A stretch of 64,000 bases of DNA from an uncultured Actinomycetes bacterium (GCA_937127245.1 CAKZLU010000029.1:67502-131501); one strand, 5' to 3'; positions 16,555-42,241 are shown, numbered from the stretch's first letter. Translations and numbers: made by a program. The notes: a model not told the origin generated them from the letters alone.

Positions 16555-19200
16555 CTACGCGTACTCGTATCTGTCGATTATGTCCTCCTGAATGGATTTG
16601 CCGAGATCAGTGAAATACGCGCTGTAGCCTGCTACTTTTACGACAAGGTCCCGGTATCTTTCGGGATTCTTCTGAGCGTCTTTCAGGGTTTCGCTTGAGA
16701 CTACGTTGGGCTGGATATGCATGCCGCCAAGGTCAAAATAAGTCTTAATCAGGGCGGCTATCTTCTGAACCCCTTCTTCGCTTTTCAGGCAGGAGGGATG
16801 AATCTTAACGTTCAGCGCCACTCCCCCGGAGAGTTTTGCCTGATTTATCGATGCTACAGATGAGAGGAGCGCCGTAAGACCGTTTCCGCCCCGAATAATG
16901 TTCGATGGCGATATTCCATTTGATGTGGGTTCCCCTCTTTTTCTTCCGTCGGGCGTTGCTCCAAGGTAAAATCCATCGAGCACGTGATTGCCGTAGGAGT
17001 ACATCCCCGCTCGATATCTTCCGCCCCTGACGTTCTTGTGCTTCTCGACTTCATCCACGAAGAACTTGACAATCGTCTTTGCGAGAAGGTCCGACTCTTT
17101 GTCGCCTCTACCGTATTTGTGCGGAGAGTTCAAAAGCCGCATCCGCAAATCCTCTCGTCGCTCGAAGTTGGAAAAGCAGGCGCGAACAAGCTCCTTTAAG
17201 GTAATCTCTTTCCTTTCGAAGACGAACTCGCGAACCGCCATCAGGCTGTCGACGGTCGTCCCCAGACCCCTCGCGATTATCGAGGTAAAATCATATTTTG
17301 CTCCGCCTCCGGTCATGTCCGTTGCGTTTTCAATGCAACCGTCTATGAGCGCAGAAACATATGGGGCGGGGAGCATTTCCATGTAGGCAAGGTCTTTTCC
17401 CTCGATTGCTTTTACGAGGGTAGATATGCAATGTCTCAGTTGGATCTTGAAAGCCTCAAAGAACTGGTCGAAATCCTTAAAATCTTCGGGTCTTCCGGTT
17501 TTCAAGCCTCTTTTCTGCCCGAAGATGGGCGCAGGGTATAGTCCGTTTGTCAGGGTCATGTACAGCACAGCGGGCAGGACTATTTCGTGACCGCCAGGGC
17601 AGGGAAAGCAGTTGTGTCCACCGCTTGTCTCTATGCAGCCCACGATTGTGTAGTCCCTTGCATCTTCTTTTGAAAGCCCGTTGCGTTCGAGGGCTGGAAT
17701 TATTACATCATCGTTGAAGAATGCGTGCCCGCTTGTCTTTCTGAATACCTTAACGGCGCGGTTAAGGAATTCAACTGGCGAGTCGGAGCTGATTCGCACC
17801 GAAAGCTGATTTATCGCTCCGTTCATTCTTTCATAAGCATCGAGCATAAGGTAAGAAAGCTCGTTCGTGGCGTCTGACCCATCCCTCCTCCTGCCGCCAA
17901 TAATCAGGCAGTGCTGACTTACCCCGAGGGTCGCGTTTGTCTCCGCGCCCACTTCAGGAAATAGTGAGATGTTTGCGGTAAGCTTTAAGTTCAACTCCTC
18001 AAGAATTTCAACCGCCTCTTCGATGGTTATTTCACCGTTTAGAAAATCGTTTAAGAAAAGCGGGTATAAATACTGGTCGGCTCTTCCTATGCCGAGCACA
18101 TCGTGCATGCCGTACTGAATCTCACCTACCAGTAACGCTAACCATATCGCTTGGACGCCTTCACGGAATTTTCTTGCCGGGCGTGCAGGGGAGTGCGAAA
18201 GCGTTTCCGCGATGCGTTTAAGTCTTTCAATCTCGCGTATGTCCTCCTGTGAAGATGCCATCTCGATGGCTTTTCTCCTAAGCCTTTCGGCGTATGTTGT
18301 AGCAGCTTCCATGCTGATGATTACGGCCTCGAGAAAAGCCTTCTTTTCTGTGTATGATGGATCCATTTCATCAAGTTTACCGATTCTTTCCCTTGCCCTG
18401 TCACGTATTCCGAGAAATCCTTCCAGGACCACCTTTTCAACACCGAGATGTAGATGACCCTGGACGTCATAACAATAGATGCCCATATTGGGGTTGTTTT
18501 TGGAGATCTCATCCCTTTTTTTCCAGACAAGAATCGCGCGACCGAGCGAGCGCGGTGCCGCCCCCCTTATTCCTGCCATCATTCTTAAATTCCGCTTGCC
18601 CAGATGTTTTGCGAACCGCAACATCTCGTATATCTGCCGGATGGTCCGCAGGGGATCACCTCTTACGGGCTCGATTATTCCTGACTCTGTCCATTTGTCG
18701 CCTTTGAGATCTCTTAAGGTTTTGCCTTCCCAGTAAGGGACAATCTCCTCGAGGAATACTTTCTTGTCTTCCGGATCGATATGAAACGGTCTTGCTTTGG
18801 CTGAAAGCACATCCATTTCCATTTGTAACGCCCTTAAGGAGTCGCCCCTTTCAGGGGCAATGACGGGCGATAAGAACTTGTCTGTTTTATTTCCAACTAT
18901 CCACTCATCCGGATAGATATGAACAGGCTGTTTCTCGCATGTTTCTTTCAAGGCAAGGGCGTTTCTCAAAGCGGGGTGCATTCCCTCGGTTTCCTTGTAC
19001 ACGCGCGTGAAATGTTTCGCCCTCTCAAGACATATCTCGTAAGGGGCATTTAGCAGGCGCTCTTTCAAACGCGCGATTCTCAGGCTGTCGCTTTTCAAGA
19101 GTCTTGCTCTTTCCTCAGTTATGCTCAGCAACTCTTGACCTCCCTTTTTCAACCGACCCTTCCGGTCAGATTTTCTTGTTCGGCTTTTCGTATTTGACAA
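16555..19200 (-). CDS. Glycyl radical enzyme (PFL2/glycerol dehydratase/X-succinate synthase superfamily)
   Basis: 881 aa. The C-terminal glycyl radical motif is VKVAGYSAYF. The catalytic Cys loop is IVGCIETSG. A basic N-terminal extension of about 50 aa is present. Confidence 0.85.
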   Translation of the reverse strand: MSNTKSRTRKSDRKGRLKKGGQELLSITEERARLLKSDSLRIARLKERLLNAPYEICLERAKHFTRVYKETEGMHPALRNALALKETCEKQPVHIYPDEWIVGNKTDKFLSPVIAPERGDSLRALQMEMDVLSAKARPFHIDPEDKKVFLEEIVPYWEGKTLRDLKGDKWTESGIIEPVRGDPLRTIRQIYEMLRFAKHLGKRNLRMMAGIRGAAPRSLGRAILVWKKRDEISKNNPNMGIYCYDVQGHLHLGVEKVVLEGFLGIRDRARERIGKLDEMDPSYTEKKAFLEAVIISMEAATTYAERLRRKAIEMASSQEDIREIERLKRIAETLSHSPARPARKFREGVQAIWLALLVGEIQYGMHDVLGIGRADQYLYPLFLNDFLNGEITIEEAVEILEELNLKLTANISLFPEVGAETNATLGVSQHCLIIGGRRRDGSDATNELSYLMLDAYERMNGAINQLSVRISSDSPVEFLNRAVKVFRKTSGHAFFNDDVIIPALERNGLSKEDARDYTIVGCIETSGGHNCFPCPGGHEIVLPAVLYMTLTNGLYPAPIFGQKRGLKTGRPEDFKDFDQFFEAFKIQLRHCISTLVKAIEGKDLAYMEMLPAPYVSALIDGCIENATDMTGGGAKYDFTSIIARGLGTTVDSLMAVREFVFERKEITLKELVRACFSNFERREDLRMRLLNSPHKYGRGDKESDLLAKTIVKFFVDEVEKHKNVRGGRYRAGMYSYGNHVLDGFYLGATPDGRKRGEPTSNGISPSNIIRGGNGLTALLSSVASINQAKLSGGVALNVKIHPSCLKSEEGVQKIAALIKTYFDLGGMHIQPNVVSSETLKDAQKNPERYRDLVVKVAGYSAYFTDLGKSIQEDIIDRYEYA

Positions 19201-20997: not shown

Positions 20998-23900
20998 TCA
21001 ATAGGAGAAAGCGACCGAAGAGTGAGCCCAGGTCCTCTCATCTCCGTACATAGCCCGCTCGCAAATGATGCTTCCGCCTGTGGATTCGACTTTGGTTGAC
21101 ACGTTGTATGTGGTCACGAATTGTCCTATGTCGAACGTCTTCCTCGAGTTTGCGGGTATCTCAACGCTCTGGAGTTCGTGAGGTTTAACCGCGCCGTCTT
21201 CGGTCATGAGGGTCAGGTTCACTCTTACGCTTCTGTTATTCGGGTTGGCCACCAGTACCCATGTCTCCATGCCGCCTGCTGTCGAGCCCTCCGCGAGATA
21301 CCAGGTTGCCGAAGGAGCTGTGACTCCCACCGAAGAGTGAGCCCAGGTCCTCTCATCTCCGTACATAGCCCGCTCGCAAATGATGCTTCCGCCTGTGGAT
21401 TCGACTTTGGTTGACACGTTGTATGTGGTCACGAATTGTCCTATGTCGAACGTCTTCCTCGAGTTTGCGGGTATCTCAACGCTCTGGAGTTCGTGAGGTT
21501 TAACCGCGCCGTCTTCGGTCATGAGGGTCAGGTTCACTCTTACGCTTCTGTTATTCGGGTTGGCCACCAGTACCCATGTCTCCATGCCGCCTGCTGTCGA
21601 GCCCTCCGCGAGATACCAGGTTGAGGCTTTTGGCTTACCGGGTTTTGGCGGTGGTGTGGGAACTTCGCTTTGCAAGACCTCGAAGCCTTGCGCTTTTCGC
21701 CCGGTCTTGCCATCCGGATTTTCGACAACCACATCCCACTTGCCTGCCTGGGCGCCCTTCAGTTTGAAGCGGCAGGTTATTTTCGTATCGGATACAACAT
21801 CCACGCCCTCTCCCTGTATCGGAGATAAGCCTGATTTCTCAAGCCTTACCCGGGCTCCCGACTTGAAGCCCGTGCCCGCAAGATTCGTTATCTCCACGTA
21901 GCCGTCGTTTAGCCCTGAGGAGGGCGTAATGGAGATTACCACCGGTGCAGGAGTCTCAATTACCTCGAAGCCTTGCGCTTTTCGCCCGGTCTTGCCATCC
22001 GGATTTTCGACAACCACATCCCACTTGCCTGCCTGGGCGCCCTTCAGTTTGAAGCGGCAGGTTATTTTCGTATCGGATACAACATCCACGCCCTCTCCCT
22101 GTATCGGAGATAAGCCTGATTTCTCAAGCCTTACCCGGGCTCCCGACTTGAAGCCCGTGCCCGCAAGATTCGTTATCTCCACGTAGCCGTCGTTTAGCCC
22201 TGAGGAGGGCGTAATGGAGAGAATTTCGGGGTTCTCGTTCCATGTGTAGATCGGGTTCGTTATCGCCACTTCCCAGCCGAGTTGCGTAAGCTGGATGATG
22301 TTTGTTATTGGATTTGCTCCCGGGTCCACCGCGAGGTGGTGAAGTTGAGCCCTATAATAATCGCCTCTCTTTGGCACATCGAAGAATGTGTACTCGAAAC
22401 TATCCGAGCATGCCCATTTGATTTTGAATATCTCCCCGTTCTTGAAGACTATGAGGAGAGGCGGAAGTATGCCAGTGATGCCGGAAGCTCCGGTCACTTT
22501 TACGAGGAATTTCGCTGGTCTGCGAAGCGCTTCGTGCGGAATCGTATCGCCCATCATGAGGCTGTAGGAATCGGGATCTGACTCTGAATACGCGGGCGCC
22601 GCCTTGAACTCTACTTTAGGTCCTTGAGGCTGCAGGCTTATGAAAGCCCTCCCCGCCTTCAGAGCGTCAAGAATGTCGGTCGCGCTTCTGGAACTAGAAA
22701 ATACCCAGGTCGTGGGAATTCCGATATTGTGGTACAGGGTTTGAAGGAAACTTTTTAGATTGTCTGTTCTTTGGGCGTGACTGTCACTTCCGCCAACCAT
22801 GGAGATTTTTCTTCCCTGTTTGACGTAATCGTTATGAATGATGTAAACGGAAGCGTGATTGAAGTTCGGCCAGAAGTAGCGTGAATTCCAAACTTCCATG
22901 GTGTCGGCATCTTTGCTTTCCTCAAACGGGTAAAGCCACAGACAGCACGGTGAACTGGGATGATTTATTGAAATGATTATCCTTTGCCCCGGTTCAGCAA
23001 GCGAGTGTGCGATCCTAATTGCCTCTTGAGCGTTTCCCTCACCCTCGAGCGTAGGTTCTATCGCCGACCAATCAAAAGGCCTGTCGGAGATAATGTTTGC
23101 GTGTCCCCTCGATGTGGTCCATTCAACCCCGTAAAGCAAGGTAAGGATATCTGAGTGAAAACCGGGGTCGTTCCATTGCCCGACGACGTTATGGTCTGTG
23201 AGCGCGAAATAATCAAGTCCCTGACTTTCGGCAGTTGAGATGACATTGCTTACGTCTGAGTCCCCATCGCTATAAGTCGAATGTGCGTGAAGATCGCCTT
23301 TAAGCCACTGTCCCTCAAGCGGGGGAATCGCGCTCATCTTGAGATTGACCCACACTGGTGCCGTCACCGCAAGCTGGACGTCGTGGTCCGGATCATCGTC
23401 GTTGCTGTCCTCGCCTGTGACGCGGACGAAGTAGTAAGATGAATAGAACGCGCTAACGGTGGGGTTCCATGAAACGACCTTTGTTCCGGGCTCGAATTCC
23501 CTTAAAGCAGCGGTCTCCCCCCCATTTGTTATGACTTCGATCTTTTTTATGTCTTCATCATCCTCAACGAAGATGTTCAACTTCACTGAACCGGGATCGA
23601 CTTCGACGCTTGATCCCATCCAAGCGTCCCCACATTTAAGCGCGATTCTCATGTTCGGGTCATCCGTTGAATAGACACGCCTGCTGTTCATCGCCTCAAG
23701 GATGGCTGGCCTGGAAAGCGATGTCGCGATAACTGCCGTCCTGTGGCTGTTCGTTTCCAGAGTGTTGTTGTCTTGGTTGGCAGTCGGCGCGAGCCGCCAT
23801 CCAGTATCGAGGGCTTGTATGTAGTACTTGTGAAACTCCCCGATAGTGTTTCCGGAATCCTTGTTACCTGTCTCGATTGCCCAGACAAGAGATGCTGGCA

Positions 23901-24465
23901 TTTCGGTGGGATACCTCAGGTTTCTGAACAGCCACGGTTCCCTTCCAGGGTGATTGAACTGAGCAATCCCCCCGCTTTGCTTAAGCCATCGGTAAAACTG
24001 CGAGAGAAGAAAGTTCTGGAATATATTCGTAAACGTTGCCGTGTTATAGACATTGATATGTCCGAGTATGGGGTTGCTCCACTCAAACCCTCTCATCGCC
24101 ACGAACACGCCGTCAACGTTGTGCGCGTCGGCAGCGGCACCGGTTTCATCCCACTCTTCCTGGGTCAGGTATTCCGCATTGTCTGTTACCGCATAGAAGT
24201 CATAGCCGGCTTCGTATCTCGCCCATGTGAAAGCTTCGTCAGGTGTGCCCTGACCGTCGGAATAGTTCGTATGGCTGTGGAAGTTGCCGAAGTAAACGTT
24301 CATTCCATTGAAAATGCCAGTATCGGGCGGCGTCTTTACCTCTCCGCCGTTCGATTTGTTCGGAGCGCCGTATGCAGGTAGTGCGAAAAATGAGGCGGTC
24401 AGTAGAATAATAAGGATGAAGGCGACGAATCTGTCTGACAGCCGACGGGTCAATTTCATGTCCAA
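20998..24465 (-). CDS. Large secreted multidomain protein: signal peptide, two PHP (polymerase/histidinol-phosphatase-like metallo-phosphoesterase) domains, two identical IPT/TIG-like repeats, a Pro/Lys linker, and two identical WYLAEGST beta-sandwich repeats
   Basis: The N-terminal signal-like segment ends at ALPAYG-A. PHP metal motifs are HSHTNYSDG and LHAHSTYSDG. The C-terminal repeats are seen at both protein and DNA level. Confidence 0.6.
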   Translation of the reverse strand: MDMKLTRRLSDRFVAFILIILLTASFFALPAYGAPNKSNGGEVKTPPDTGIFNGMNVYFGNFHSHTNYSDGQGTPDEAFTWARYEAGYDFYAVTDNAEYLTQEEWDETGAAADAHNVDGVFVAMRGFEWSNPILGHINVYNTATFTNIFQNFLLSQFYRWLKQSGGIAQFNHPGREPWLFRNLRYPTEMPASLVWAIETGNKDSGNTIGEFHKYYIQALDTGWRLAPTANQDNNTLETNSHRTAVIATSLSRPAILEAMNSRRVYSTDDPNMRIALKCGDAWMGSSVEVDPGSVKLNIFVEDDEDIKKIEVITNGGETAALREFEPGTKVVSWNPTVSAFYSSYYFVRVTGEDSNDDDPDHDVQLAVTAPVWVNLKMSAIPPLEGQWLKGDLHAHSTYSDGDSDVSNVISTAESQGLDYFALTDHNVVGQWNDPGFHSDILTLLYGVEWTTSRGHANIISDRPFDWSAIEPTLEGEGNAQEAIRIAHSLAEPGQRIIISINHPSSPCCLWLYPFEESKDADTMEVWNSRYFWPNFNHASVYIIHNDYVKQGRKISMVGGSDSHAQRTDNLKSFLQTLYHNIGIPTTWVFSSSRSATDILDALKAGRAFISLQPQGPKVEFKAAPAYSESDPDSYSLMMGDTIPHEALRRPAKFLVKVTGASGITGILPPLLIVFKNGEIFKIKWACSDSFEYTFFDVPKRGDYYRAQLHHLAVDPGANPITNIIQLTQLGWEVAITNPIYTWNENPEILSITPSSGLNDGYVEITNLAGTGFKSGARVRLEKSGLSPIQGEGVDVVSDTKITCRFKLKGAQAGKWDVVVENPDGKTGRKAQGFEVIETPAPVVISITPSSGLNDGYVEITNLAGTGFKSGARVRLEKSGLSPIQGEGVDVVSDTKITCRFKLKGAQAGKWDVVVENPDGKTGRKAQGFEVLQSEVPTPPPKPGKPKASTWYLAEGSTAGGMETWVLVANPNNRSVRVNLTLMTEDGAVKPHELQSVEIPANSRKTFDIGQFVTTYNVSTKVESTGGSIICERAMYGDERTWAHSSVGVTAPSATWYLAEGSTAGGMETWVLVANPNNRSVRVNLTLMTEDGAVKPHELQSVEIPANSRKTFDIGQFVTTYNVSTKVESTGGSIICERAMYGDERTWAHSSVAFSY
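21013..21623. repeat. Nucleotide-identical tandem repeat, about 1.9 copies of a 315-bp unit (encodes the WYLAEGST... repeats on the minus strand)
   Basis: Direct comparison shows 21016.. matches 21331.. exactly. The identical plus-strand shadow ORFs 21121..21414 and 21436..21624 confirm this. Confidence 0.9.
21678..22225. repeat. Nucleotide-identical tandem repeat, about 1.9 copies of a 285-bp unit (encodes the IPT/TIG-like ITPSSGLNDGYVEITNLAGTGFKSG... repeats)
   Basis: Direct comparison shows 21681.. matches 21966.. exactly. Shadow ORFs 21521..21901 and 21929..22186 share identical C-terminal 72 aa. Confidence 0.9.
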
Positions 24466-24650
24466 TCACCCCCGCGATGATAAAACATCGAAATAAGCGA
24501 AAAATTACGGCAGACGAGGGAAAAATGAATGGCTTTGCACGCCTTTAGATCCGACTATCACCAATTCGTTTCAATCCTCCCGTCTGAAGCAAAGCAAATA
24601 TATATCATGAAAATGTTTTTTTCAACCATAAAGGACCTAAGGAGGAGAAC

Positions 24651-24941: not shown

Positions 24942-25487
24942 ATGCCTGATTCTGTTACTACGATTGAAAAGGAGATAGGAAAAAGAATCGGCGAAAAGCC
25001 ATGGCTCTGCTATCAATGCAAGAAGTGCACCGCAGGATGTCCTGTTTCCTTCGCGATGGACCTTATGCCTCATGAAATCATGAACCTTCTGCGCTGGAGC
25101 GCCAGCGACAGGATACTCGCTTCTTCGACAATCTGGCTTTGCGCCTCTTGTGAGACGTGTTCGGTTCGCTGTCCCAACGGAATTGACATCGCGGGTGTGA
25201 TGGACGCGCTCCGATCCATCTCTATCGATAAGCATTACCGTCCTGGCGAACCGCTCGTAACCGCGTTTCACCGCTCTTTTCTCGCAGGGATAATGGGCGC
25301 GGGAAGAACAAACGAACCTGTTTTGATCGGTATTTACAAAATTCTGAGCGGGCGCCTGCTGGATGACATCGGTCTCGGGGTAAAAATGATTCTGAAGAGA
25401 AAGATCAAACCCGTGCCCCGATTTGTGAAAGACAGGGCTGCGATCCGCAGAATCTTCAGGGAAGCGAAAGCCCGGAGGACGAAATGA
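24942..25487 (+). CDS. hdrC: Heterodisulfide reductase subunit C-like (two [4Fe-4S] clusters)
   Basis: CYQCKKCTAGCP and CASCETCSVRCP motifs. Its stop overlaps the hdrB start (ATGA). Confidence 0.8.
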   Translation: MPDSVTTIEKEIGKRIGEKPWLCYQCKKCTAGCPVSFAMDLMPHEIMNLLRWSASDRILASSTIWLCASCETCSVRCPNGIDIAGVMDALRSISIDKHYRPGEPLVTAFHRSFLAGIMGAGRTNEPVLIGIYKILSGRLLDDIGLGVKMILKRKIKPVPRFVKDRAAIRRIFREAKARRTK

Positions 25488-26362
25488 GTCTGAAATACGC
25501 TTATTTTCCAGGATGTTCCCAGGTGAGTTCCGCCGAAGAATACGGGCTTTCGACAGAGGCGGTATGCGAGTCGCTCGGGATTGAGCTTGTAGAACTCGAC
25601 GACTGGAACTGCTGTGGTGCCTCGTCCGCCCACATGACCGACGAGTTCCTTTCCGCCGCTCTACCCGGTCGGAATCTTGCGATCGCGAGAGAAACGGGTC
25701 TGGATTTGCTTACGGTTTGCGCCGCCTGCTACTCGCGGCTCACCATGTCCAACGCAAAGATTAAAAGTGACGACGCCCTACGTGAACGAATAGAGCGGGC
25801 AGTGGGCGCTGACCCTCGTTTCGAGGGGAAGGTACGGCATTTGCTCGACGTTATAGTGAATGACGTGGGTATTCCCCAAATAAAAAAATTTGTGAAAAAT
25901 GACCTTTCAAGCATCAAGGCCGTTCCTTATTACGGTTGTCTTCTGGTCAGACCTCGGGAAGTTTGCTTTTGTGATTCTGCGGAAAATCCCACTGAACTCG
26001 ACCTTCTTATTTCCGCTCTGGGTTTAGAGGTTAGGCAATGGTCTTATAAAACGGACTGTTGCGGGGGTAGTCTTTCACTTTCGAGGAATGATATTGTGCA
26101 GAGGCTTGTGAACCGCATATTCGAGCGCGCTGTTGAGGCAGGCGCTGATTTGATCGTTACCGCATGTCCCATGTGTCTTGCCAATCTAGAGATGCGACAG
26201 AAACCTGGAAAGCTGAGGTTCGAGCAGGTTTTCACCGTGCCGGTTCTTTATTTCACCGAACTTATTGGTCTTGCCATGGGACTTGACGGTTGGGAGAAAT
26301 GGCTTGGCGCTCATCTCATAGATCCATTTCCAGTCCTTAAAAAGATAGAAGCTCTCTCGTAG
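25484..26362 (+). CDS. hdrB: Heterodisulfide reductase subunit B-like (two CCG cysteine-rich domains)
   Basis: The N-terminal CCG domain has DWNCCGAS...CAACYSR. The C-terminal CCG domain has KTDCCGGS...CPMCLANL. Confidence 0.85.
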   Translation: MSLKYAYFPGCSQVSSAEEYGLSTEAVCESLGIELVELDDWNCCGASSAHMTDEFLSAALPGRNLAIARETGLDLLTVCAACYSRLTMSNAKIKSDDALRERIERAVGADPRFEGKVRHLLDVIVNDVGIPQIKKFVKNDLSSIKAVPYYGCLLVRPREVCFCDSAENPTELDLLISALGLEVRQWSYKTDCCGGSLSLSRNDIVQRLVNRIFERAVEAGADLIVTACPMCLANLEMRQKPGKLRFEQVFTVPVLYFTELIGLAMGLDGWEKWLGAHLIDPFPVLKKIEALS

Positions 26363-26498
26363 TATGCGGTTTCATTTGGAATTTTTGGATGTCGGTAAAG
26401 AGAAAATTGGCGCCGTGCCGATTCAAAGGTTTCTCCTTCTGGCCAAGTAATGTTGTGCGCCGAGCGTAATATTTGAGTTTTTCATATCGAGGTAAGCA

Positions 26499-29400
26499 AT
26501 GAACGGAAAAATTTACGAAACCCAAACTGAGGGAGGAAAATCAGAGCGTGTTTACAGCTCTAAACCGGTTGGGTCAGTGATGGTGATTGGGGGAGGAATA
26601 GCCGGCGTACAAGCATCTCTGGATTTAGCAGATCTCGGTTACAGGGTTTACCTTGTTGACTCCGCTCCTTCAATAGGCGGGGTAATGGGCCAGCTTGATA
26701 AGACGTTTCCCACGAACGACTGCTCTATGTGTATTCTCTCGCCTAAACTAGTCGAGGCGGGGTCTAACGACAACATCGAAATAATCACTCTTGCCGAGAT
26801 TATGGATATAACCGGAGAACCCGGGAACCTCGAGGTGATTCTTAAGAGGAACCCCAGGTTTGTGGATATTGACAAATGCACCGGTTGTGGAATATGCACG
26901 GAACACTGCCGAGTCAAGGTTAAAGATCCTTACAATGCGGGTCTTGCGCGGGTTCCGCTCATAAGAGTTCCATTCCCTCAAGCCGTGCCGGGCGCGGCTT
27001 TCATAGACCCGACCAAATGCCTCCAGATATTGAAGGGTAAATGCGGAGAATGCCAGAAATACTGCCCCGCTGGAGCGATAGATTTTTCCGACAAAGAAAG
27101 GACCGATAAGATTGAAGTTGGCTCGGTCATTATAGCATGCGGTTTCAGCCCTTTTGATCCCCACAAGACTGAGGAGTACGGATACGGAACCTATGAAAAC
27201 GTGATAACCAGCCTGGAGTTTGAGCGCATTCTCGCCGCCAATGGACCAACCGGTGGTCACATCTTGAGGCGCTCCGATTCACAATCAGCACAGAAGATAG
27301 CGTTCATTCAGTGCGTGGGCTCGAGGGATTCCAGGATCGGGAACACGTACTGCTCTTCTGTCTGCTGCATGTATGCCACCAAGCAGGCGATTATCGCCAG
27401 GGAGCACGACAGACGTATTCAATCCACCATTTTTTACATAGATTTTCGCGCCCACGGCAAGGGATTTGAGGAGTACCGCTCGAGAGCTGAGAATGAGCAC
27501 GGGGTGCGATACGTAAGGTGTCTTGTGTCTGCGGTGAAGGAGATGCAGCCTTCCAAGCGCCTGCTCCTTGTCTTCATAAACGAGGAGAATCAGTTTGTCG
27601 AGGAAGAGTTCGATCTTGTCGTGTTGAGTGTTGGCATAACGAGCGGGATTGATGCGCTGGCGACAAGACTCGGGATCCGGGTTAATTCCCACGGTTTTAT
27701 ACAAGTGCCGAAACCAGCCAGCTTGGAGACATCAAGACCGGGGGTATATGTTTGTGGAGCGGCTGAGGGTCCCAAAGACATACCGGAATCGGTAATCCAG
27801 GCAAGTGCGGCTGCCGGAAGCGCCTCCTCCTTGCTCTGCCCCTCGAGGGGTGAGCTAACGGTAAAAAGGGAGTATCCTCCCGAAAGGGACGTGCGAGGGG
27901 ATGAGCCGAGAATCGGAGCGATAATATGCCGCTGCGGAACTAACATTGGCGGCGTGGTTGATGTGCCTGCTGTGGTTGAGTACGCCAGAACTCTCCCGGG
28001 TGTGGTGTTTGCTGAAGAGAGGCTTTACGCGTGCAGTCAGGACGCGCAAGTATGGATAAAGGAAATAATCGAGAAGCATAAGCTAAACAGGCTTGTGGTT
28101 GCTTCATGCACCCCGAGGACTCACCAGCCTTTGTTCAGGGAGACTGTTCGTTTGGCGGGGCTCAATAAGTATCTGTTCGAGATGGCTAACATCAGGGAGC
28201 ACTGCTCCTGGGTTCATATGGATGAGCCAGGACTGGCGACTGAAAAAGCCAAGCAGCTGGTGCTGATTGCTGTTAAGAAAGCGTCCCTTCTTGAACCACT
28301 GGAAGAAGGGGTTTCTCCCGTTACGCCTGTCGCTTTGGTGATCGGCGGCGGTCCTGCGGGAATGTCAGCAGCCCTCAGGCTTGCCGATGCTGGTTTCAAG
28401 ACCCATCTTGTCGAGCAAGAGGAAGAGCTCGGCGGCAACATGAGGCATGTGAGGATGACCCTGGAAGGGGATAACGCGCGTGAAATACTCGAAGAAATGA
28501 TTCGATCTGTCATGAATCATCCCCTTGTGGAAGTTCATTTAACCTCGAAGGTTGCCTCCATTGAGGGCTACGTTGGGAGCTACACTTCAGTCATCGAGAA
28601 ATGCGCTAACTCAGCGGGGCGTTCAAACCCCGATATTGAATCGGCAAGTCTTGGTGATGATGTGTCCGAAGATGGGACCGTGAGAGTTGATCACGGCATA
28701 GTGGTGGTCGCTGTCGGCGCGGAGGAGTACAGGCCGAAATACGGCGAGTACATGTACGGTCTTGATCAAAGAGTGATAACGCAAACCGAGCTTGAGCGCC
28801 GGATTTTCGATGAGCCGGAATCACTGGAAGGTGTAAAGAACGTGGTGATGGTCCAGTGCGTGGGATCACGCAACGAGGAACATCCTTACTGCTCTCGGAT
28901 TTGCTGCGGGGTGACACTGAAAAACGCTTGCGAATTGAAGAAGTTTCTGCCCGGAGCGAATGTGACAATATGTTACAGGGATGTGAGGGCATATGGTTTC
29001 AACGAGGAAAAGTACCTTGACGCACGTGAGAGAGGAGTGAGGTTTGTCCGCTTCACACAGGAAGACCAACCTTCGGTAAGCGCGGCTATAGGAAGACTTG
29101 AGGTGGTCGTGAAAGACAGGAACATGCGCGATGAGGCAATCACCATTTTCCCGGACCTCCTCGTCCTTTCGTGCGGAATCGTGGCGCGCGGGGGATCGCG
29201 GGAACTTGCGTCCATGCTCAAGGTCCCCCTTACTTCTGATGGATTCTTCCTGGAAGCTCACGTGAAGCTGAGACCGATTGAGTTTGCGACCGATGGCATC
29301 TTTCTTGCGGGCATGGCGCATTATCCAAAAACGATCAGGGAGAGCATCGCCAGCGCCCAGGCCGCGGCCGCGAAGGCAGAAGCGGTTCTTTCGAAAGACA

Positions 29401-29666
29401 AGATTGTAACCGAGGGCATAGTCGCGCGAATAGACCCCGAGATTTGCTCGGGATGTGGCCAATGCATCGACCTTTGCTCGTACGGAGCTTTGGAGTTTGA
29501 CCCCTCGATGAGAGTCGCGAGAGTTAACCCTTCGCTGTGCAAGGGCTGCGGGGCTTGCAGTGCGGCTTGTCCTTCAGGAGCGAATCAACTTCTCGGCTTT
29601 AGACCCTGTCAAATCTACGCGCAGATTGAAGCTTCATGCGCTCTTCTGGAGGCGGGTGGTCAATGA
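26499..29666 (+). CDS. hdrA: HdrA-like flavoprotein, 1055 aa, apparent tandem HdrA-HdrA fusion with a C-terminal 2x[4Fe-4S] ferredoxin domain
   Basis: There are two GxGxxG FAD motifs (VIGGGIAGVQASLDLA near the N-terminus and VIGGGPAGMSAALRLA near the middle). There are two CVGSR(D/N)...YCS..CC cluster motifs. An inserted CTGCGICTEHC ferredoxin, a mid-protein CRCG..ASCTPR Cys-rich domain and a C-terminal CSGCGQCIDLCS...CKGCGACSAACP domain are also present. Confidence 0.85.
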   Translation: MNGKIYETQTEGGKSERVYSSKPVGSVMVIGGGIAGVQASLDLADLGYRVYLVDSAPSIGGVMGQLDKTFPTNDCSMCILSPKLVEAGSNDNIEIITLAEIMDITGEPGNLEVILKRNPRFVDIDKCTGCGICTEHCRVKVKDPYNAGLARVPLIRVPFPQAVPGAAFIDPTKCLQILKGKCGECQKYCPAGAIDFSDKERTDKIEVGSVIIACGFSPFDPHKTEEYGYGTYENVITSLEFERILAANGPTGGHILRRSDSQSAQKIAFIQCVGSRDSRIGNTYCSSVCCMYATKQAIIAREHDRRIQSTIFYIDFRAHGKGFEEYRSRAENEHGVRYVRCLVSAVKEMQPSKRLLLVFINEENQFVEEEFDLVVLSVGITSGIDALATRLGIRVNSHGFIQVPKPASLETSRPGVYVCGAAEGPKDIPESVIQASAAAGSASSLLCPSRGELTVKREYPPERDVRGDEPRIGAIICRCGTNIGGVVDVPAVVEYARTLPGVVFAEERLYACSQDAQVWIKEIIEKHKLNRLVVASCTPRTHQPLFRETVRLAGLNKYLFEMANIREHCSWVHMDEPGLATEKAKQLVLIAVKKASLLEPLEEGVSPVTPVALVIGGGPAGMSAALRLADAGFKTHLVEQEEELGGNMRHVRMTLEGDNAREILEEMIRSVMNHPLVEVHLTSKVASIEGYVGSYTSVIEKCANSAGRSNPDIESASLGDDVSEDGTVRVDHGIVVVAVGAEEYRPKYGEYMYGLDQRVITQTELERRIFDEPESLEGVKNVVMVQCVGSRNEEHPYCSRICCGVTLKNACELKKFLPGANVTICYRDVRAYGFNEEKYLDARERGVRFVRFTQEDQPSVSAAIGRLEVVVKDRNMRDEAITIFPDLLVLSCGIVARGGSRELASMLKVPLTSDGFFLEAHVKLRPIEFATDGIFLAGMAHYPKTIRESIASAQAAAAKAEAVLSKDKIVTEGIVARIDPEICSGCGQCIDLCSYGALEFDPSMRVARVNPSLCKGCGACSAACPSGANQLLGFRPCQIYAQIEASCALLEAGGQ

Positions 29667-30172
29667 TGAGTGAAGCACGCGGCTCAAGCGTGAAAATACC
29701 CGATGACGTGAGAATCGTGGCTTTCCTTTGCAACTGGTGTTCGTATGCCGGGGCTGACCTTGCTGGTGTGAGCCGCATGCAGTACCCCCCAAACGTCGTG
29801 GGGATAAGGGTTATGTGTACGGCCACGGTATCTCCGTATCACGTGCTTAAAGCTCTGCAGATGGGAGCGGATGGCGTATTGATCGCCGGTTGCCACATCG
29901 GGGATTGTCATTACCTGAAAGGTAACTACATGACTTACAAAAGATACCTTATCTTGCGAGAAATTCTTCGCTTCGCGGGCATTAACGAGAAGAGAGTTCG
30001 GCTCGAGTGGATTTCCGCGGCTGAGGGCGAGAAATTTGCTGAAGTGATAAGGAGTTTTACCGAAGAGGTTAGAGAGGCTGGATTGAGCCCCTTGAGAAAG
30101 AACGAGGTCATTAAGTCGGAGTTTGGCGAAAAGCTCAAAAACGCTTTCCGTTCACTTGAGGTTGTCAAATGA
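29663..30172 (+). CDS. mvhD: MvhD/FlpD-like methyl-viologen-reducing hydrogenase delta subunit homolog ([2Fe-2S])
   Basis: The conserved pattern is FLCNWCSY...VMCTA...AGCHIGDCHY. The ATG at 29663 overlaps the hdrA stop (ATGA); the longer frame begins at 29636. Confidence 0.8.
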   Translation: MMSEARGSSVKIPDDVRIVAFLCNWCSYAGADLAGVSRMQYPPNVVGIRVMCTATVSPYHVLKALQMGADGVLIAGCHIGDCHYLKGNYMTYKRYLILREILRFAGINEKRVRLEWISAAEGEKFAEVIRSFTEEVREAGLSPLRKNEVIKSEFGEKLKNAFRSLEVVK

Positions 30173-30310
30173 AAGCCAAATTTCTCATGAAAAAGCCCAT
30201 AGGTACTGTCTCCGTCTGGGAATCGGAGGACTTTTGTCTTTCGTTTGGCTCTTTGTTGAGCGGGCGCAACGGACTTGCAAGTATCTTATGAGCGGAAGCG
30301 GAGGAATATC

Positions 30311-31117
30311 GTGTCGATAAGAGAAAAGGCGCGTCAATTGTTCGCGGAGGGAGTTGATGGGGTTCTCGCTTTCAAGAGAACGGATGGCGTTTGCATACCC
30401 CATCTCTTTACCAAAACCGAGGTCGAGGAGATTTGCAAGGACGTTCCCGCAGATCAAAGATACCCGGTTGCCGGAATCGTCCGCCGCATTTTCCTTTCCG
30501 GGCTTGCCGGAAAAATTGGCGTCGTGGCCAGGGGATGCGACGAGAGGGCACTTATCGAACTGGGCAAGCAGGGTCAAATCGATTTTGACCTTTTATCAAT
30601 CATCGGGGTCGCCTGCAGTGAGGAACAGGCAAGATACTGCGAGTGCTCAAAGCCTTATCCCTCACGCATAGATGTTGGCTCAAGATTTGAGGGAATATCG
30701 GTTTCTGAAAAAGTCCGCGCCGTCGAATCCATGGAAGGCGATGAGAGACTCGCCTACTGGCTTGCTCAATTCGCTTCTTGCCTGAAGTGTATGGGTTGCA
30801 GAAATATCTGTCCCGTTTGCTATTGTGTTGAGTGCTCTCTCGAGGATGAAAACCTCGTCCGGCGCGGGAGCGTACCTCCTGACTGGCCTGTCTTCCACCT
30901 TCTCCGGGCGGTTGACATGGCTTCGAGGTGCATTGATTGCGGACTGTGCGAGGAAAGTTGTCCATCGGGTATTCCGCTCAGAACGCTTTACAAAAAGGCA
31001 ACCGAAATTGTTAAAGAATTGTTCGACTATGAACCTGGCGCGGATATGACCCAAAGGAGCCCGCTTGGAACTATCGGGGATCAAAGCGAGCTGCCCGGCG
31101 GGGCATTTGAGGCGTGA
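30311..31117 (+). CDS. Iron-sulfur subunit, 2x[4Fe-4S] ferredoxin core with FrhB/FdhB-like flanks (putative electron-transfer subunit between Fdh and Hdr)
   Basis: CLKCMGCRNICP and CIDCGLCEESCP motifs. The likely start is the GTG at 30311, after a GGAGGA RBS; the ORF track begins at TTG 30275. Confidence 0.5.
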   Translation: MSIREKARQLFAEGVDGVLAFKRTDGVCIPHLFTKTEVEEICKDVPADQRYPVAGIVRRIFLSGLAGKIGVVARGCDERALIELGKQGQIDFDLLSIIGVACSEEQARYCECSKPYPSRIDVGSRFEGISVSEKVRAVESMEGDERLAYWLAQFASCLKCMGCRNICPVCYCVECSLEDENLVRRGSVPPDWPVFHLLRAVDMASRCIDCGLCEESCPSGIPLRTLYKKATEIVKELFDYEPGADMTQRSPLGTIGDQSELPGGAFEA

Positions 31118-31280
31118 AAGGAGTCCGTAACTGTTTTCAAAATTTGGTTTTTTGCATGAAAGACTCAACTTAATCACTAATCCGGTAGGGTAATTTTAAA
31201 AATAAAAAAGTGGCGCGGAGACAATATGCCGCGTGTAAGTTTGTGGAAGTGCTTGGATCAATCGATTGTCAGGAGAGTCT

Positions 31281-33341
31281 ATGTCAGATAAGAACTTAGA
31301 TTTTAGCTATACCACGGTTCCCACTATCTGTCCCTACTGCGGAACAGGTTGCGGGATGCTTCTCGAAGTTATCGGGGGAAAAATATCAGGCGTGCTTCCC
31401 ATGAAAGGGCACCCGGTATCCGACGGTTGTCTCTGCCTGAAAGGCTGGACGGCGCACGAGTTTGTCTCATCTCCAGACAGACTTGCCCGCGCGCTTGTGG
31501 GTAAGGATGGAGATTTCAAGGAGGTCGGATACACCGAAGCTGTTGCGCTCGTGGCAGATGCGATGCGCGAAACTGTTGAGAATCACGGCCCTGACAGCTG
31601 CGCTTTTGTCGCATCGGCAAGATGCACCAATGAAGAGAATTATTTGATGAGTAAACTTGCGCGTTTCGCGGTGGGCACAAACAACATAGATCACTGCGCG
31701 CGTTTGTGACACAGCCCAACGGTCGCCGGTCTGGCGACGGTGTTCGGTTCTGGTGCTATGACAAACTCGATAGGTGAGCTATCGGATGCCGATGTAATTT
31801 TGCTGACAGGATCGAACACCAGCGAACAGCACCCGGTCATTGCGGGGAAGATATTGGACGCGGTCCGGAAGGGCGCGAAACTGCTCATATTCGACCCTCG
31901 CATCATTCATCTTACCTCATTTGCTCACATGCATTTACGGCAAAAGCCGGGTACGGACATAGTCTGGATAAACGCTTTAATGAAAGTGATCATTGATGAG
32001 GACCTCCTGGACAGAGAGTTCGTAAACTCAAGAACCGAGGGCTTTGAAGAGCTTTCGCGTTCGCTGGAAAACTATTCTTTGGAGCGCGCGGCTGAAATAT
32101 GCGGAATAGAAGCTTCAGACCTCAGGGAAGCGGCGAGGATTTTCGCAATGGCTGACAAGGCGTCGATAGTCTATTGCATGGGGATAACTCAGCACGTTTT
32201 CGGCACCAGGAATGTACTGGCACTCGCTAACCTCGCGCTGTTGACAGGAAACGTTGGCAGACTCTCCACCGGTGTAAATCCGCTCCGCGGCCAGAACAAT
32301 GTGCAGGGAGCTTGCGATGTGGGGGCGCTTCCAAATGTTCTTACTGGTTACCAGAAGGTTGACGACGATGTTGCGAGGGGGAATTTTGAAAGCGCCTACG
32401 GAAAGAAACTACCTTCAAAACCTGGATTGACTCTTATTGAAATAATGAACGCTTGTCTTGAGGGAAAGATCAAGTTTCTCTACATAATGGGTGAAAACCC
32501 GATGATAACCGAGCCGGATTTAAAGCACGTCGAAGAAGCGCTCTCGGCGGTTGATTTTCTGGTGGTTCAGGACATATTTCTTACCGAAACCGCCAGGCTC
32601 GCTCACGTGGTGCTTCCTGGTAGCTGCTGGGCGGAAAAGGACGGTACATTTACGAACACGGAGCGTCGGGTTCAAAGAATAAGGAAAGCTATCGATCCCC
32701 CCGGAGATGCCAGACTGGACTGGCAGATCATCTGTGACATAGCGAAAGCTTTCGGTTCAGATTATTTCGAATATTCTTCTGCCGAGGAGATATTTGACGA
32801 GATAGCGAAATTAACTCCCTCGTACTCGGGGATGAGTTATCAAAGGCTTTCCACGCAAGGTTTGCAGTGGCCGTGTCCTTCAGTTGACCATCCGGGCACC
32901 GTTTACCTGCACGAGACAGGTTTTGCAAGGGGTAAAGGACTTTTCAGCGTGGTTGAATACGATCCCGAATCTCAGAAGCTCGAAGAACACTATCCTTTCG
33001 TGCTCATGACTGGCAGGGTAGGATTTCAGTATCACTCCGGAACGATGTCCAGACGTTCACGCGCGCTCGCGCGTGAGGTACCCGAAGCTTACGTCGAGAT
33101 CAGTCCTCAGGATGCGGCAAGACTCGGTATTTCAGATCGAGATAAAGTAAAAGTTGTAAGCCCCAACGGCGAGCTCACCGTCCGCGCATTTGTTACTGAA
33201 AGGGTTCGTCCCGGCGAGATATTCATTCCTTTCCACTTTTCTGAAGCTCCCGCGAACATACTTATAAACAGCAGAGAGCTTGACCCACAAAGCAAGATAA
33301 CCTCAATGAAGTTTTGTCCGGCGAGGATAGAGAAGGCATAA
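31281..33341 (+). CDS. fdhA: Formate dehydrogenase alpha subunit (molybdopterin oxidoreductase), selenocysteine-containing; in-frame TGA at 31707..31709
   Basis: The N-terminal Fe-S motif is CPYCGTGCG...C. ORFs 31266..31709 and 31740..33341 share one frame, joined by a single TGA. It sits in the canonical HCARL-U-HSPTVAGL motif (compare E. coli FdhF VCHxRxCHGPSVA with U140). Molybdopterin-binding and C-terminal cap regions follow. Confidence 0.85.
31710..31745 (+). promoter_or_regulatory. SECIS-like hairpin immediately 3' of the UGA (stem GTCGCC/GGCGAC 31722-31727/31733-31738, apical loop GGUCU)
   Basis: Read from the sequence. The hairpin starts about 13 nt after the UGA, and its apical loop contains GGUC, as in bacterial SECIS elements. 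Confidence 0.55.
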
Positions 33342-40227: not shown

Positions 40228-41157
40228 TTAAGGCGCGTTTTCATAAGCGGATTCGATAGCGTTTTCTTCCTGCATGCTTGGAGGAACTTCTATTTCCTCT
40301 GATCTTCTCGAAAGGATGATGGTCCCCGCTAAGACGAGCACAAATCCTAAGATTCTCATAGCAGCAAGCGTCACGTTTTTGGGTAGTTTCTCATAGAGAA
40401 TGACCATCCCGAGCAGTATCGGGACAAGTTGCGCTATTCCTGCCTGGATTGGCACCACTATAACGGCGAGACCACGCTGAAGTGCCGCCTGCCAGATAAT
40501 GAAGGCAGGGATGCACACCCCGGCCCAACCGAGGACGTAGGGGTTGAAGATATAGCCTTTTGAGAAGTTATAAAGAAGGATGCGGGCAAAAATGGCGGTC
40601 ATGCCGTAAAGCAGACCGACTGAGATCCCCAGTCCTATGGATTCTTTGCTCTGTCCTTTGGACCTCATAGCAAGCGGGAATAAGATGGCAAGGACCACTA
40701 TACCTGCGCAGACGAGCCAAACCGCCCAGGGGTTAAACTTGAGCGTATCCTTCGCTCCGCTTTCGGAGACCTTTTCGGCAAGACTTATACCTATGAGGAT
40801 GACTCCCGTGATGTTTATACCTATTGCGAAAAGGTCGATTTTTCTCGGTTTTTCGCCGAGGTTCTTTATCGCAAGATATGCGAGAAACGCGACCCCGGAA
40901 GCCACAATTGGCGTCACAATGGAAACCTCTATGAAGACGAGCGAAACGCTGTATAGCACAGATGATATCAACATTACCGCCAAGGAGATGAGCCATGTCT
41001 TACTGCTGAGGAAAGCCTTTATGATACTTAAGATTTCCCTCGACGCTTTAAAGGTTACCCTCGGGAGCTTATCCACAGCGACTTTCTGGAGATATGCGGT
41101 GTAGTTAAATCCGATTGACGCTGCGACGGCGCAGAAAACAGCGAAAACCGTTATCAT
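40228..41157 (-). CDS. DMT-superfamily (EamA-like) integral membrane transporter
   Basis: About 10 hydrophobic segments. It shares a LAYLAIKNLGEKPRKID segment with the adjacent paralog. Confidence 0.5.
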   Translation of the reverse strand: MITVFAVFCAVAASIGFNYTAYLQKVAVDKLPRVTFKASREILSIIKAFLSSKTWLISLAVMLISSVLYSVSLVFIEVSIVTPIVASGVAFLAYLAIKNLGEKPRKIDLFAIGINITGVILIGISLAEKVSESGAKDTLKFNPWAVWLVCAGIVVLAILFPLAMRSKGQSKESIGLGISVGLLYGMTAIFARILLYNFSKGYIFNPYVLGWAGVCIPAFIIWQAALQRGLAVIVVPIQAGIAQLVPILLGMVILYEKLPKNVTLAAMRILGFVLVLAGTIILSRRSEEIEVPPSMQEENAIESAYENAP

Positions 41158-41350: not shown

Positions 41351-42241
41351 TTATGTGAGAGCGGTCTGTGTTTGTGATTGCGCTCTTCTCGAAAGAATTA
41401 CGGTTCCAGTTATTATGAGCAAAAATGCCAGAATTCTTGCTGCAAGAAGAAAAGGGTTCTTCGGAAGTGGCTCCCGCAGAGCGGTCATTCCGACAACGAT
41501 TGGAACAAGTTGTGTCAGGCTGGTGAATATTGGGGCGACAACGACAGCCATGCCCCTCTGAAAAGCAGCTTGAACAGTGATTAGCGCGGGGAGAAAAGTG
41601 AAAAGCCAGGCGAGAAAAAAGACACTTGAGAAAATGACCAGCAGGCCCCTGGCGTCCCACTGATGTCTCCAATCGAGGAGCATGAGCCTTGCGAAAACTG
41701 TACCTGTGCCGTATAGAAGACCCACGCATATTCCGAGAAGCGCGCCCTGCCTTTCCCCGCTATTTCTACCGGACAAAAGACCTAATAAGATGGCGGTTGC
41801 CACGATTGCCGCGACAAGTAACCACAGTAATGAAGGATTGTGTTTGGTTTCCTTCGGGAGTCCTTCGGCGAGACTAACGCCTATTAGTATCACGCCCGTT
41901 ATGTTAAATGAGATGGCCAGATAATCGATTTTTCTCGGTTTCTCTCCGAGGTTTTTGATGGCGAGATAAGCAAGGATTACCACTCCGGAGCTAATTATTG
42001 GCTGAACCACAGATATGGGCGCAAGGGAAACGGCGATGAAATATAGCCCTCCCCCGAAAAGACCGAACGCCGCGAACAGCCACATCAGCCGATGCGAGAC
42101 GAAAGCCTTGAGGAGCCCTTTTTCACGTTTCTTGAGTCCCACTTTAGGCAGTTCGATCACGGCTTTCTTGTTCATGTACATCGATAAGTTGAAGAAAACC
42201 GCGGCACCAACCGCACATAATACCGCAACTAGAGTCTTCAT
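41351..42241 (-). CDS. DMT-superfamily (EamA-like) integral membrane transporter, tandem paralog
   Basis: Clear similarity to 40228..41157, including the identical 17-aa LAYLAIKNLGEKPRKID. Confidence 0.5.
   Translation of the reverse strand: MKTLVAVLCAVGAAVFFNLSMYMNKKAVIELPKVGLKKREKGLLKAFVSHRLMWLFAAFGLFGGGLYFIAVSLAPISVVQPIISSGVVILAYLAIKNLGEKPRKIDYLAISFNITGVILIGVSLAEGLPKETKHNPSLLWLLVAAIVATAILLGLLSGRNSGERQGALLGICVGLLYGTGTVFARLMLLDWRHQWDARGLLVIFSSVFFLAWLFTFLPALITVQAAFQRGMAVVVAPIFTSLTQLVPIVVGMTALREPLPKNPFLLAARILAFLLIITGTVILSRRAQSQTQTALT

Follow-up and report, generated by a model that had tools for sequence, protein, structure and literature searches.

A 64-kb window from an uncultured Actinomycetes bacterium (64,000 nt, the whole stretch of DNA analysed) carries on its minus strand a gene for a multidomain protein with a predicted signal peptide, a head of two PHP-superfamily modules, two TIG domains, a Pro/Lys-rich spacer and two DUF5719 domains (Table 1). 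The two copies of each tail domain are identical at the DNA level. Taken together, the features of the protein modestly favor a Sec-exported metallohydrolase, probably a phosphoesterase, that would be tethered non-covalently to the cell wall and whose tail arrays would evolve in concert.

The open reading frame (ORF) was confirmed at 20998..24465 (1155 aa), with TTG at 24465 as its mechanical start. The ATG at 24459 is the likely start, giving a product of 1153 aa, because of its Shine-Dalgarno spacing and because the ortholog begins at the equivalent Met. An earlier note on this DNA listed the motifs HSHTNYSDG and LHAHSTYSDG and a PTPPPKPGKPK linker; all three were found in the 1155-aa ORF, the two motifs at aa 63-71 and aa 392-401. 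That description was largely right, except that the repeat identity is not full-length and the architecture is not unusual; from its interpretation, the PHP, TIG and β-sandwich assignments, the plausibility of export and the caution about assembly held up, while the unusual architecture and the recent duplication did not.

The closest protein is an ortholog of 953 aa (P0001, L001/L002) with 79% amino acid identity over the catalytic part, which occurs in the metagenome-assembled genome (MAG) of Ca. Geohydrothermomicrobium daggyaiense (Actinomycetota, class Ca. Geothermincolia). The two loci share synteny, with HdrC/B/A-like, FlpD, ferredoxin and molybdopterin oxidoreductase genes on one side and SDR and MBL-fold genes on the other. 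The synteny and the occurrence of the same protein in that MAG make the window host a related actinobacterium, presumably monoderm. The ortholog has the same order of signal peptide, module 1, module 2, TIG, PPPKPGKPKAS spacer and DUF5719, but contains one TIG and one DUF5719 domain only, and still has His at the three positions (96, 234 and 565) that carry Asn, Asn and Gln in the window protein.

The family is already catalogued, with relatives annotated as “CehA/McbA family metallohydrolase” or “DUF5719 family protein”. An exact-sequence look-up of the full protein found no record. About 20 database clusters share the two-module core, which is found with the modules in both orders, and the tail is present on the ortholog and on many other proteins. 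Head, TIG spacer and DUF5719 tail are thus each known elsewhere, and what is specific to this gene is the doubling of DNA-identical tail domains and the loss of two ligand His in module 1. The locus overturns no current knowledge.

Table 1. Features of the PHP gene, in 5' to 3' order along the coding strand (positions are those of the window)
Feature	Position	Strand	Basis
Promoter-like TTGAAA-17-TATATT, 10/12	24597..24625	-	Consensus scan, consensus match only
Shine-Dalgarno-like GGGGGTGA, ending 6 nt 5' of the ATG at 24459	24466..24473	-	Read from sequence
Coding sequence, predicted exported multidomain protein	20998..24459	-	ORF list; ATG choice from Shine-Dalgarno and ortholog
Predicted Sec signal peptide MKLTRRLSDRFVAFILIILLTASFFALPAYG, cleaved before AP	24367..24459	-	Inspection, no predictor
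Module 1: CehA/McbA-type PHP barrel and C-terminal β-sandwich (DUF3604-like), two ligand His replaced	23332..24318	-	NF038032, DUF3604, AlphaFold2 (AF2), Foldseek
Asn96 (codon AAT), PHP motif II “TDH”, canonical ligand position 4	24178..24180	-	His in 118/122 homologous modules
Asn234 (codon AAC), PHP motif IV “DxH”, canonical ligand position 9	23764..23766	-	His in 97/122, Glu in 18/122
Module 2: complete CehA/McbA-type PHP metallohydrolase module	22240..23331	-	NF038032, Pfam PHP
TIG copy A, 259-nt identical core	21962..22220	-	Tandem Repeats Finder, arm comparison, Pfam
Inter-TIG linker, 26 nt, unique (..IETPAPVV..), fits GFxVxxxPAPxxxS-ITPxxG	21936..21961	-	Family consensus
TIG copy B, 259-nt identical core	21677..21935	-	Tandem Repeats Finder, arm comparison
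Pro/Lys-rich spacer LQSEVPTPPPKPGKPKAS	21624..21676	-	PPPKPGKPKAS shared with ortholog
DUF5719/ASRAH β-sandwich copy A, 295-nt identical core	21329..21623	-	
Inter-DUF5719 linker, 20 nt, unique (SVG-VTAPSA-TWY), canonical for DUF5719 arrays	21309..21328	-	Family consensus
DUF5719/ASRAH copy B, 295-nt identical core	21014..21308	-	Tandem Repeats Finder, arm comparison
C-terminal end ..V-AFSY and stop	20998..21013	-	Homolog of the G[YF]xP ending seen on other DUF5719 tails

Two PHP modules in the head

Both modules match the NCBIfam model NF038032 from end to end, module 1 with 128.8 bits (model 3-315/315) and module 2 with 140.2 bits (1-314/315) against a cutoff of 80 bits; the model is of the “domain” type and not an equivalog. 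Module 2 also exceeds the Pfam PHP cutoff of 26.4 bits (31.6 bits), while module 1 stays below it (15.5 bits) and matches DUF3604 (36.5 bits; cutoff 20.4). In hhalign the two modules align as homologs from one end to the other (305 columns, probability 99.95%). A PDB profile search with module 1 retrieved the PHP chains TM0559 (2anu), 3e38, PolX, RNase AM-type and YcdX, and the AF2 model of module 1 (predicted local distance difference test 87, predicted template modeling score 0.89) has 3e38 (E 1e-13) and 2anu (E 1e-7) as its top Foldseek matches in the PDB. The predicted fold of module 1 is thus the distorted (βα)7 barrel of solved PHP proteins. The direct PDB sequence search with the full protein gave a 45-residue motif I-II stretch of PolX as its sole match. 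Given the NF038032 matches, the homology between the modules and the profile and Foldseek matches, the predicted PHP-superfamily membership of both modules is secure. Therefore, of the two PHP metallo-phosphoesterase domains proposed earlier, both HxH regions do belong to the superfamily by domain search, but one of the modules has a depleted ligand set.

The PHP consensus comprises nine ligands for three metals (H H D/H H E H C/H D/N H), of which positions 4, 6 and 9 are most often lost in inactive variants (PMC3666897). Ligand conservation was measured here over 122 module-1-type and 19 module-2-type homologous segments. Module 2 keeps H393, H395, D400, H425, E448, H455, H487, H502, E524, D561 and H563, each invariant or nearly so in its set. 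Module 1 has Asn at canonical positions 4 and 9 and retains the remaining ligand positions. The two Asn residues align with His of the sister module (N96 opposite H425, N234 opposite H563), N96 aligns in addition to the “TDH” of ttPolX, and the ortholog has CAC at both codons where the window has AAT and AAC. Elsewhere among the 122 segments, Asn at position 96 occurs only in the degenerate first modules of P0015, P0017 and P0018. In these proteins the first module is fully degenerate, with HxH changed to N-G-S, TDH to TDN and Glu to Cys.

Positions 3, 4 and 9 presumably build the third (γ) metal site, as in the structure of the histidinol-phosphate phosphatase of L. lactis. If so, N96 and N234 would remove one site in a coordinated way. 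Because of the Asn residues at both canonical positions, module 1 is probably impaired or altered. In ttPolX, mutation of position 4 (H374A) abolished exonuclease activity (PMC2665239). Weighing against an impaired module is that Asn can ligate some metals, so module 1 may stay active. In the favored reading, module 2, with its complete ligand set, would be the likely catalyst, and module 1, predicted to lack one of three metal sites, would serve as a partner that is attenuated, altered or confined to binding the substrate. If this is true, two His-to-Asn changes within one module represent a natural case of ligand loss, with the intact sister module and the ortholog as controls, that bears on two- versus three-metal PHP chemistry.

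A third ligand loss, His565Gln, was considered and rejected, since the column is variable (9 Leu, 8 His). Pseudogenization was likewise rejected: the ORF is intact, and a relative-rate test on 241 columns invariant in outgroups gave 9 window-specific changes versus 4 in the ortholog, numbers too small to claim general decay.

The two module types are also found together in other phyla (Desulfobacterota proteins), in one order or the other, which suggests that they work as a pair. Further two-module variants are found among P0015, P0017 and P0018 and among P0008-P0014, P0016 and P0021, some with two module-1-type copies and, in Desulfobacterota, with module 2 followed by module 1.

Tail, surface attachment and likely activity

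The 95-aa repeats described as IPT/TIG-like match PF01833 above threshold (cutoff 20.9 bits), with 32.3 bits over two stretches for the whole protein and 22.0 bits for a single copy. The WYLAEGST repeats match DUF5719 (PF18986; 58.2 bits over two stretches for the whole protein, 34.5 for a single copy, cutoff 26.2), and the suggestion that they are β-sandwich-like agrees with the ASRT/TM1070-like β-sandwich fold, whose features DUF5719 displays. A literature search found nothing on DUF5719 and nothing relevant on DUF3604. Across an alignment of 21 DUF5719 repeats, Glu, Gly, Thr, Asn, Arg, Thr, Glu, Arg and Tyr are invariant, and the same alignment contains the hallmarks of the ASRAH superfamily, T-W-Y on strand 1 and an invariant Asn (N25, “ANPN”). 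ASRAH domains are diagnosed by a strand-1 Trp after a polar residue and a near-invariant Asn ending strand 2 (De Souza, Iyer and Aravind, 2009; PMC2739507). Since both the strand-1 Trp and the Asn at the end of strand 2 are present, DUF5719 is predicted to belong to ASRAH, a fold assignment that is a by-product of this analysis.

ASRAH domains are predicted to bind sugars, their extracellular versions occur as dyads or tetrads with a cleft formed partly at the dimer interface, and versions fused to amidases were proposed to bind peptidoglycan (PMC2739507). A search with the tail alone returned 192 proteins, mostly from Actinomycetota or Geothermincolia MAGs, in which the partner domains include Amidase_3, Peptidase_M23 and β-propeller domains. 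Among 115 relatives, the DUF5719 repeat count is one in 9, two in 29, three in 22 and four in 55. The window protein thus carries a dyad; the ortholog has a single copy, so the dyad/tetrad rule is not absolute. The pair would form an intramolecular dyad of the ASRAH type that binds cell-wall glycan, and the two TIG domains and the Pro/Lys spacer would make up a stalk.

Several other tail-bearing proteins were noted. A separate secreted protein of Ca. Geohydrothermomicrobium daggyaiense (contig003; L003 7401-9183) combines YAGGxFTxIGG β-propeller repeats with a single TIG and three or more diverged DUF5719 domains, and its inter-repeat junction AHNSVGVTSPAKTWYLPEG nearly matches that of the window. 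Five or more paralogs, each with a length of some 460 aa (P0121, P0128, P0131, P0134 and P0148), are reported from one 11,008-bp contig of the Joint Genome Institute (JGI), which suggests a tandem gene family of wall-binding proteins; P0121, which was inspected, has four DUF5719 repeats. In P0216, the DUF5719 array is broken by Gly/Arg-rich nonsense stretches that look like frameshift errors or a decaying gene.

How would the enzyme reach and remain at the cell surface? By inspection, the N-terminus has a K/R-rich n-region, a hydrophobic core of 17 residues (Kyte-Doolittle 2.8) and an AYG/AP site with small residues at -3 and -1, which makes the export proposed earlier plausible. It is possible that the segment acts instead as an uncleaved signal anchor. 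Export by the Tat pathway, hinted at by “TRR” in the n-region, was rejected, as the remainder of the motif is missing and the arginine pair is not conserved in P0001 and P0003. The inspected C-terminus (..WAHSSVAFSY) lacks both an LPXTG motif and a hydrophobic tail, no lipobox Cys lies close to the cleavage site, and the protein contains no second hydrophobic segment. Because LPXTG, lipobox and second hydrophobic segment were all not found, a non-covalent cell-wall anchor, provided by the DUF5719 dyad on the TIG and Pro/Lys stalk, would be the most economical reading. The proposed picture is then that of a monoderm actinobacterium related to Ca. Geothermincolia in which the enzyme is probably exported by Sec and kept at the surface without a covalent anchor. 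If true, DUF5719 gains a TM1070/ASRT-like fold and a candidate role in cell-wall binding, and deep-branching thermophilic actinobacteria would tether extracellular enzymes by an ASRAH/DUF5719 glycan-binding dyad instead of a sortase or lipid anchor.

For the head, an extracellular phosphoesterase is favored, if by no wide measure, because of the domains fused to its homologs (LTD, OB-fold and alkaline phosphatase) and because the characterized PHP enzymes, CehA and McbA apart, all cleave phosphoesters. Most of the remote homologs of module 1 are found within large secreted proteins that also contain LTD and OB-fold domains, a number of them named YhcR-like endonucleases, and in two clusters module-2-type domains are joined to alkaline phosphatase. 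A Sec-secreted PHP phosphodiesterase is on record, namely Sb-PDE of Sphingobium sp. TCM1 (PMC5460133). Going by these fusions, module 2 may catalyze metal-dependent extracellular phosphoester hydrolysis and so serve to scavenge nucleic acid, nucleotides or organophosphate. The earlier suggestion of an extracellular nuclease or phosphoesterase is therefore plausible from the fusions, but the only characterized namesakes of NF038032, CehA and McbA, are carbamate-ester hydrolases, acting on carbaryl/carbofuran via His of the PHP-like domain.

Some points weigh against the proposed activity and attachment: substrate, metal content and localization are all predicted, the nearest structures (3e38 and 2anu) are functionally uncharacterized, and glycan binding by ASRAH is a prediction made in 2009, so that the domain could target a substrate polymer instead of the own wall. 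Somewhat unlikely, but a serious alternative, is that the enzyme scavenges neither nucleic acid nor phosphate and is either a carboxyl- or carbamate-ester hydrolase, as the chemistry of CehA and McbA would have it, or a wall-polymer phosphodiesterase for which DUF5719 serves as a substrate-targeting carbohydrate-binding module. The general prediction of ASRAH as a sugar binder fits the latter, and the gene neighborhood offers no phosphate-regulon or nuclease context; however, every other characterized PHP enzyme cleaves phosphoesters, the homolog fusions indicate nucleic acid and phosphate, and the fusion of DUF5719 to Amidase_3 and Peptidase_M23 fits binding to the own wall.

Identity of the tail repeats

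Tandem Repeats Finder reported a period of 315 (1.9 copies, 100%) at 21014-21623 and a period of 285 (1.9 copies, 100%) at 21677-22220, and no other long exact repeats were found within the window. The identical arms comprise 259 of 285 nt for TIG (86 aa) and 295 of 315 nt for DUF5719 (98 aa). The 26-nt (IETPAPVV) and 20-nt (GVTAPS) linkers occur once each and, compared codon by codon, mismatch both flanks from the first base. The claim of 100% identity over the full length of the units thus holds for the arms, which are perfect, but not for the linkers. The copies show 0 differences in 554 nt (95% upper bound 0.54% divergence), whereas the corresponding segments of the ortholog agree with the window at 73-75% of nucleotides and at 40-46% of third codon positions; the identity of the copies is far beyond chance.

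Why are the copies identical? Both linkers are of a kind found throughout the respective families: “SVG-VT[AS]P[AS]xT-WYLAEG” joins DUF5719 repeats in many unrelated proteins, and “GFxVxxxPAPxxx[ST]-ITPxxG” joins TIG repeats family-wide. Other actinobacterial MAGs also contain DUF5719 arrays that are perfect or nearly so and are joined by this canonical linker. P0218 (L011 4949-5541, on a 250-kb contig of NCBI GCA_014360655.1) has a period of 306 in 1.9 copies at 100%, arranged as core-linker-core-“GFAP”, and P0144 (L010 3703-5007, JGI 3300076002) a period of 330 in 3.9 copies at 97%. The maximum DUF5719 identities within different proteins reach 100, 99, 99, 96, 89 and 87%, the last three in the repeat pairs of P0123, P0174 and P0216. 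The gene call of P0144 seems to begin within the array, overlapping an upstream ORF of 856 aa with β-propeller repeats, and the two may be one longer gene. In the favored reading, the identical pairs would be two-copy tandem arrays with canonical linkers, homogenized by unequal recombination or gene conversion, that is, by concerted evolution. The single copies of the ortholog would then represent either contraction, which would be an absorbing state, or an unexpanded state, and copy number would be expected to vary.

Other observations weigh against concerted evolution. For multi-repeat relatives, the highest identity between copies within a protein has a median of 58% (33-57% in the first homolog set), and Tandem Repeats Finder detected no high-identity DNA repeats in the multi-TIG loci L004 and L006; since the copies have diverged in most multi-repeat relatives and these loci lack such repeats, homogenization is not general. 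Parsimony over P0001, P0002 and P0003, with one TIG each, favors a gain in the window lineage, which needs an origin for the canonical linker. Furthermore, 1.9 copies at 100% is also what is expected from minimal traversal of a loop by a short-read assembler.

Two alternatives were weighed. Two independent and very recent simple tandem duplications, whose copies have had no time to diverge, would suit the absence of differences over 554 nt and the single-copy state of both tail domains in the ortholog, and the inter-TIG IETPAP+VV loosely resembles the ortholog flanks IERKAP and VV. A fresh duplication, however, predicts a junction made of the start of the right flank and the end of the left flank, and here the first base on each side mismatches, so that the test for a flank-derived junction failed for both arrays. 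In addition, the VTAPSA junction is common to unrelated proteins of other genomes, which argues that the linker was inherited and did not arise de novo, and the same gene would need to have undergone two duplications, both in frame and both exact to the domain. We therefore regard this origin as quite improbable. The earlier note had offered very recent duplication or concerted evolution; because the junctions are canonical and not flank-derived, recent duplication is not the simplest reading, and concerted evolution of short arrays, or collapse by the assembler, is indicated.

Collapse would mean that the copies are only near-identical, or that their true number is one, three, or four or more, a merged node of the de Bruijn graph having been walked once as a loop (flank, core, linker, core, flank). 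In each array there are exactly 1.9 copies at 100% and a single unique linker, the pattern left when a collapsed repeat is traversed along its minimal Eulerian path; a like signature occurs in a second MAG (period 306 x 1.9), tetrads are the commonest DUF5719 state among relatives, and no independent assembly of the window organism was found in species-representative genomes and JGI metagenomes, the scans of which gave no more than the 79-86% ortholog and some distant TIG proteins. Yet both linkers are in frame (285 = 95 x 3; 315 = 105 x 3) and match the junction consensus of their family, so real core-linker-core junctions must occur in the reads. The related 3.9-copy array at 97% was resolved with its differences preserved, the pairs at 96, 89 and 87% form a natural continuum of young repeats, and the contig, of at least 64 kb, runs through both repeats. 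An artefact of this kind is on balance unlikely, but short-read loop collapse is possible, and the copy number is for that reason a lower bound. The caution expressed earlier about mis-assembly and variable copy number is valid, and perfect repeats such as these mark a spot where MAG assemblies may miscount domains.

With concerted evolution as the preferred explanation for the arrays, a more far-reaching proposal can be formulated, although we consider it rather doubtful as a whole. The wall-binding TIG/DUF5719 tails on many unrelated secreted proteins of Geothermincolia-type Actinomycetota may be a fast-evolving shared cassette whose arrays repeatedly expand, contract and homogenize, which would account for perfect or near-perfect arrays in at least four independent genes/genomes and would tune stalk length and anchor valency. 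The switch from single copy to dyad might here have coincided with the conversion of module 1 to a pseudo-enzyme, either two-metal or non-catalytic and substrate-binding, as a single metal site lost its two His ligands in a coordinated way.

Gene neighborhood and known systems

The PHP gene stands alone, divergent from an hdrC-like gene and convergent with an SDR gene. The divergent spacer of 476 bp is AT-rich (GC 0.38-0.43) and contains the promoter-like site. A scan of the whole window against Rfam gave zero matches. Operon context was tried as a lead to function and gave none, because the neighbors are cytoplasmic redox genes on divergent or convergent strands.

The divergent genes form a conserved cluster (24942-33341, plus strand; L001 1137-9518) of HdrC-like, HdrB-like (CCG), 1055-aa HdrA-like flavoprotein, MvhD/FlpD, ferredoxin and molybdopterin oxidoreductase, a candidate for an actinobacterial electron-bifurcating complex of the formate or heterodisulfide type. 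The FdhA-like molybdopterin oxidoreductase (31281-33341, plus strand) contains an in-frame TGA at 31707-31709, within “HCARL*HSPTVAGL”, with a GC-rich hairpin about 12 nt downstream, and its L001 ortholog has Cys (“HCARLCHSPTVAGL”) exactly at the position of the TGA. The two probably form an ortholog pair with selenocysteine in the window protein and cysteine in the other; of the window gene, only the 533-aa C-terminal part is given in the mechanical ORF list. A PFL-like glycyl-radical enzyme of 881 aa (16555-19200, minus strand; PF02901 with 526 bits, and Gly_radical) is encoded between an MBL-fold gene and a PolyA_pol/HD (CCA-adding-like) gene, and its absence from the syntenic position in L001 points to a lineage-specific insertion or loss. 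Further along, a 139-nt direct repeat with 71% identity (40774-40912 and 41864-42002) lies inside the adjacent same-strand ORFs 40228-41157 and 41351-42241, which are probably tandem paralogous genes.

How does the protein compare with characterized systems? The use of DNA-identical tandem Ig-like repeats is familiar from Gram-positive surface proteins such as streptococcal alpha C and Rib and staphylococcal SasG/Aap, in which the repeats are in-frame and domain-sized, vary in number, are maintained by recombination and serve as a stalk in wall-associated proteins. These proteins have many copies and are sortase-anchored, whereas the window protein lacks an LPXTG motif and has each of its two tail domain types in duplicate.

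For the head, the namesakes CehA and McbA are exported (periplasmic) and have catalytically essential His residues in a PHP-like domain, and both window modules fit the model named after them. However, they are single-module proteobacterial xenobiotic esterases, whereas the window protein combines tandem modules with a TIG/DUF5719 tail and shows no sign of a tie to carbamates. The two-domain PHP-like phosphoesterase 3e38 (BVU_3505) has the same layout of barrel and C-terminal β-sandwich as module 1, although it and 2anu (TM0559) share only 17-19% sequence identity with it and are single-module structural-genomics entries of no known function. Sb-PDE resembles the window protein in its Sec signal peptide, its nine-ligand motif set and its membership of the PHP superfamily, and is Zn-dependent and active on phosphodiesters and p-nitrophenyl phosphate. 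It differs in being a 441-aa single-module homodimer with no tail domains, and the likeness is one of described properties.

For the tail, the ASRAH families (ASRT/TM1070 and the secreted actinobacterial and amidase-fused versions) share with DUF5719 the eight-strand β-sandwich, the Trp and Asn residues, the arrangement in dyads or tetrads and the link to peptidoglycan amidases. Unlike the ASRT-type members, DUF5719 lacks their ligand-contact His and Cys and has the signature WY[LF]AEGxT...NP...SRxT...ER.xY, and in the window protein the domain is joined to a PHP hydrolase via TIG domains.

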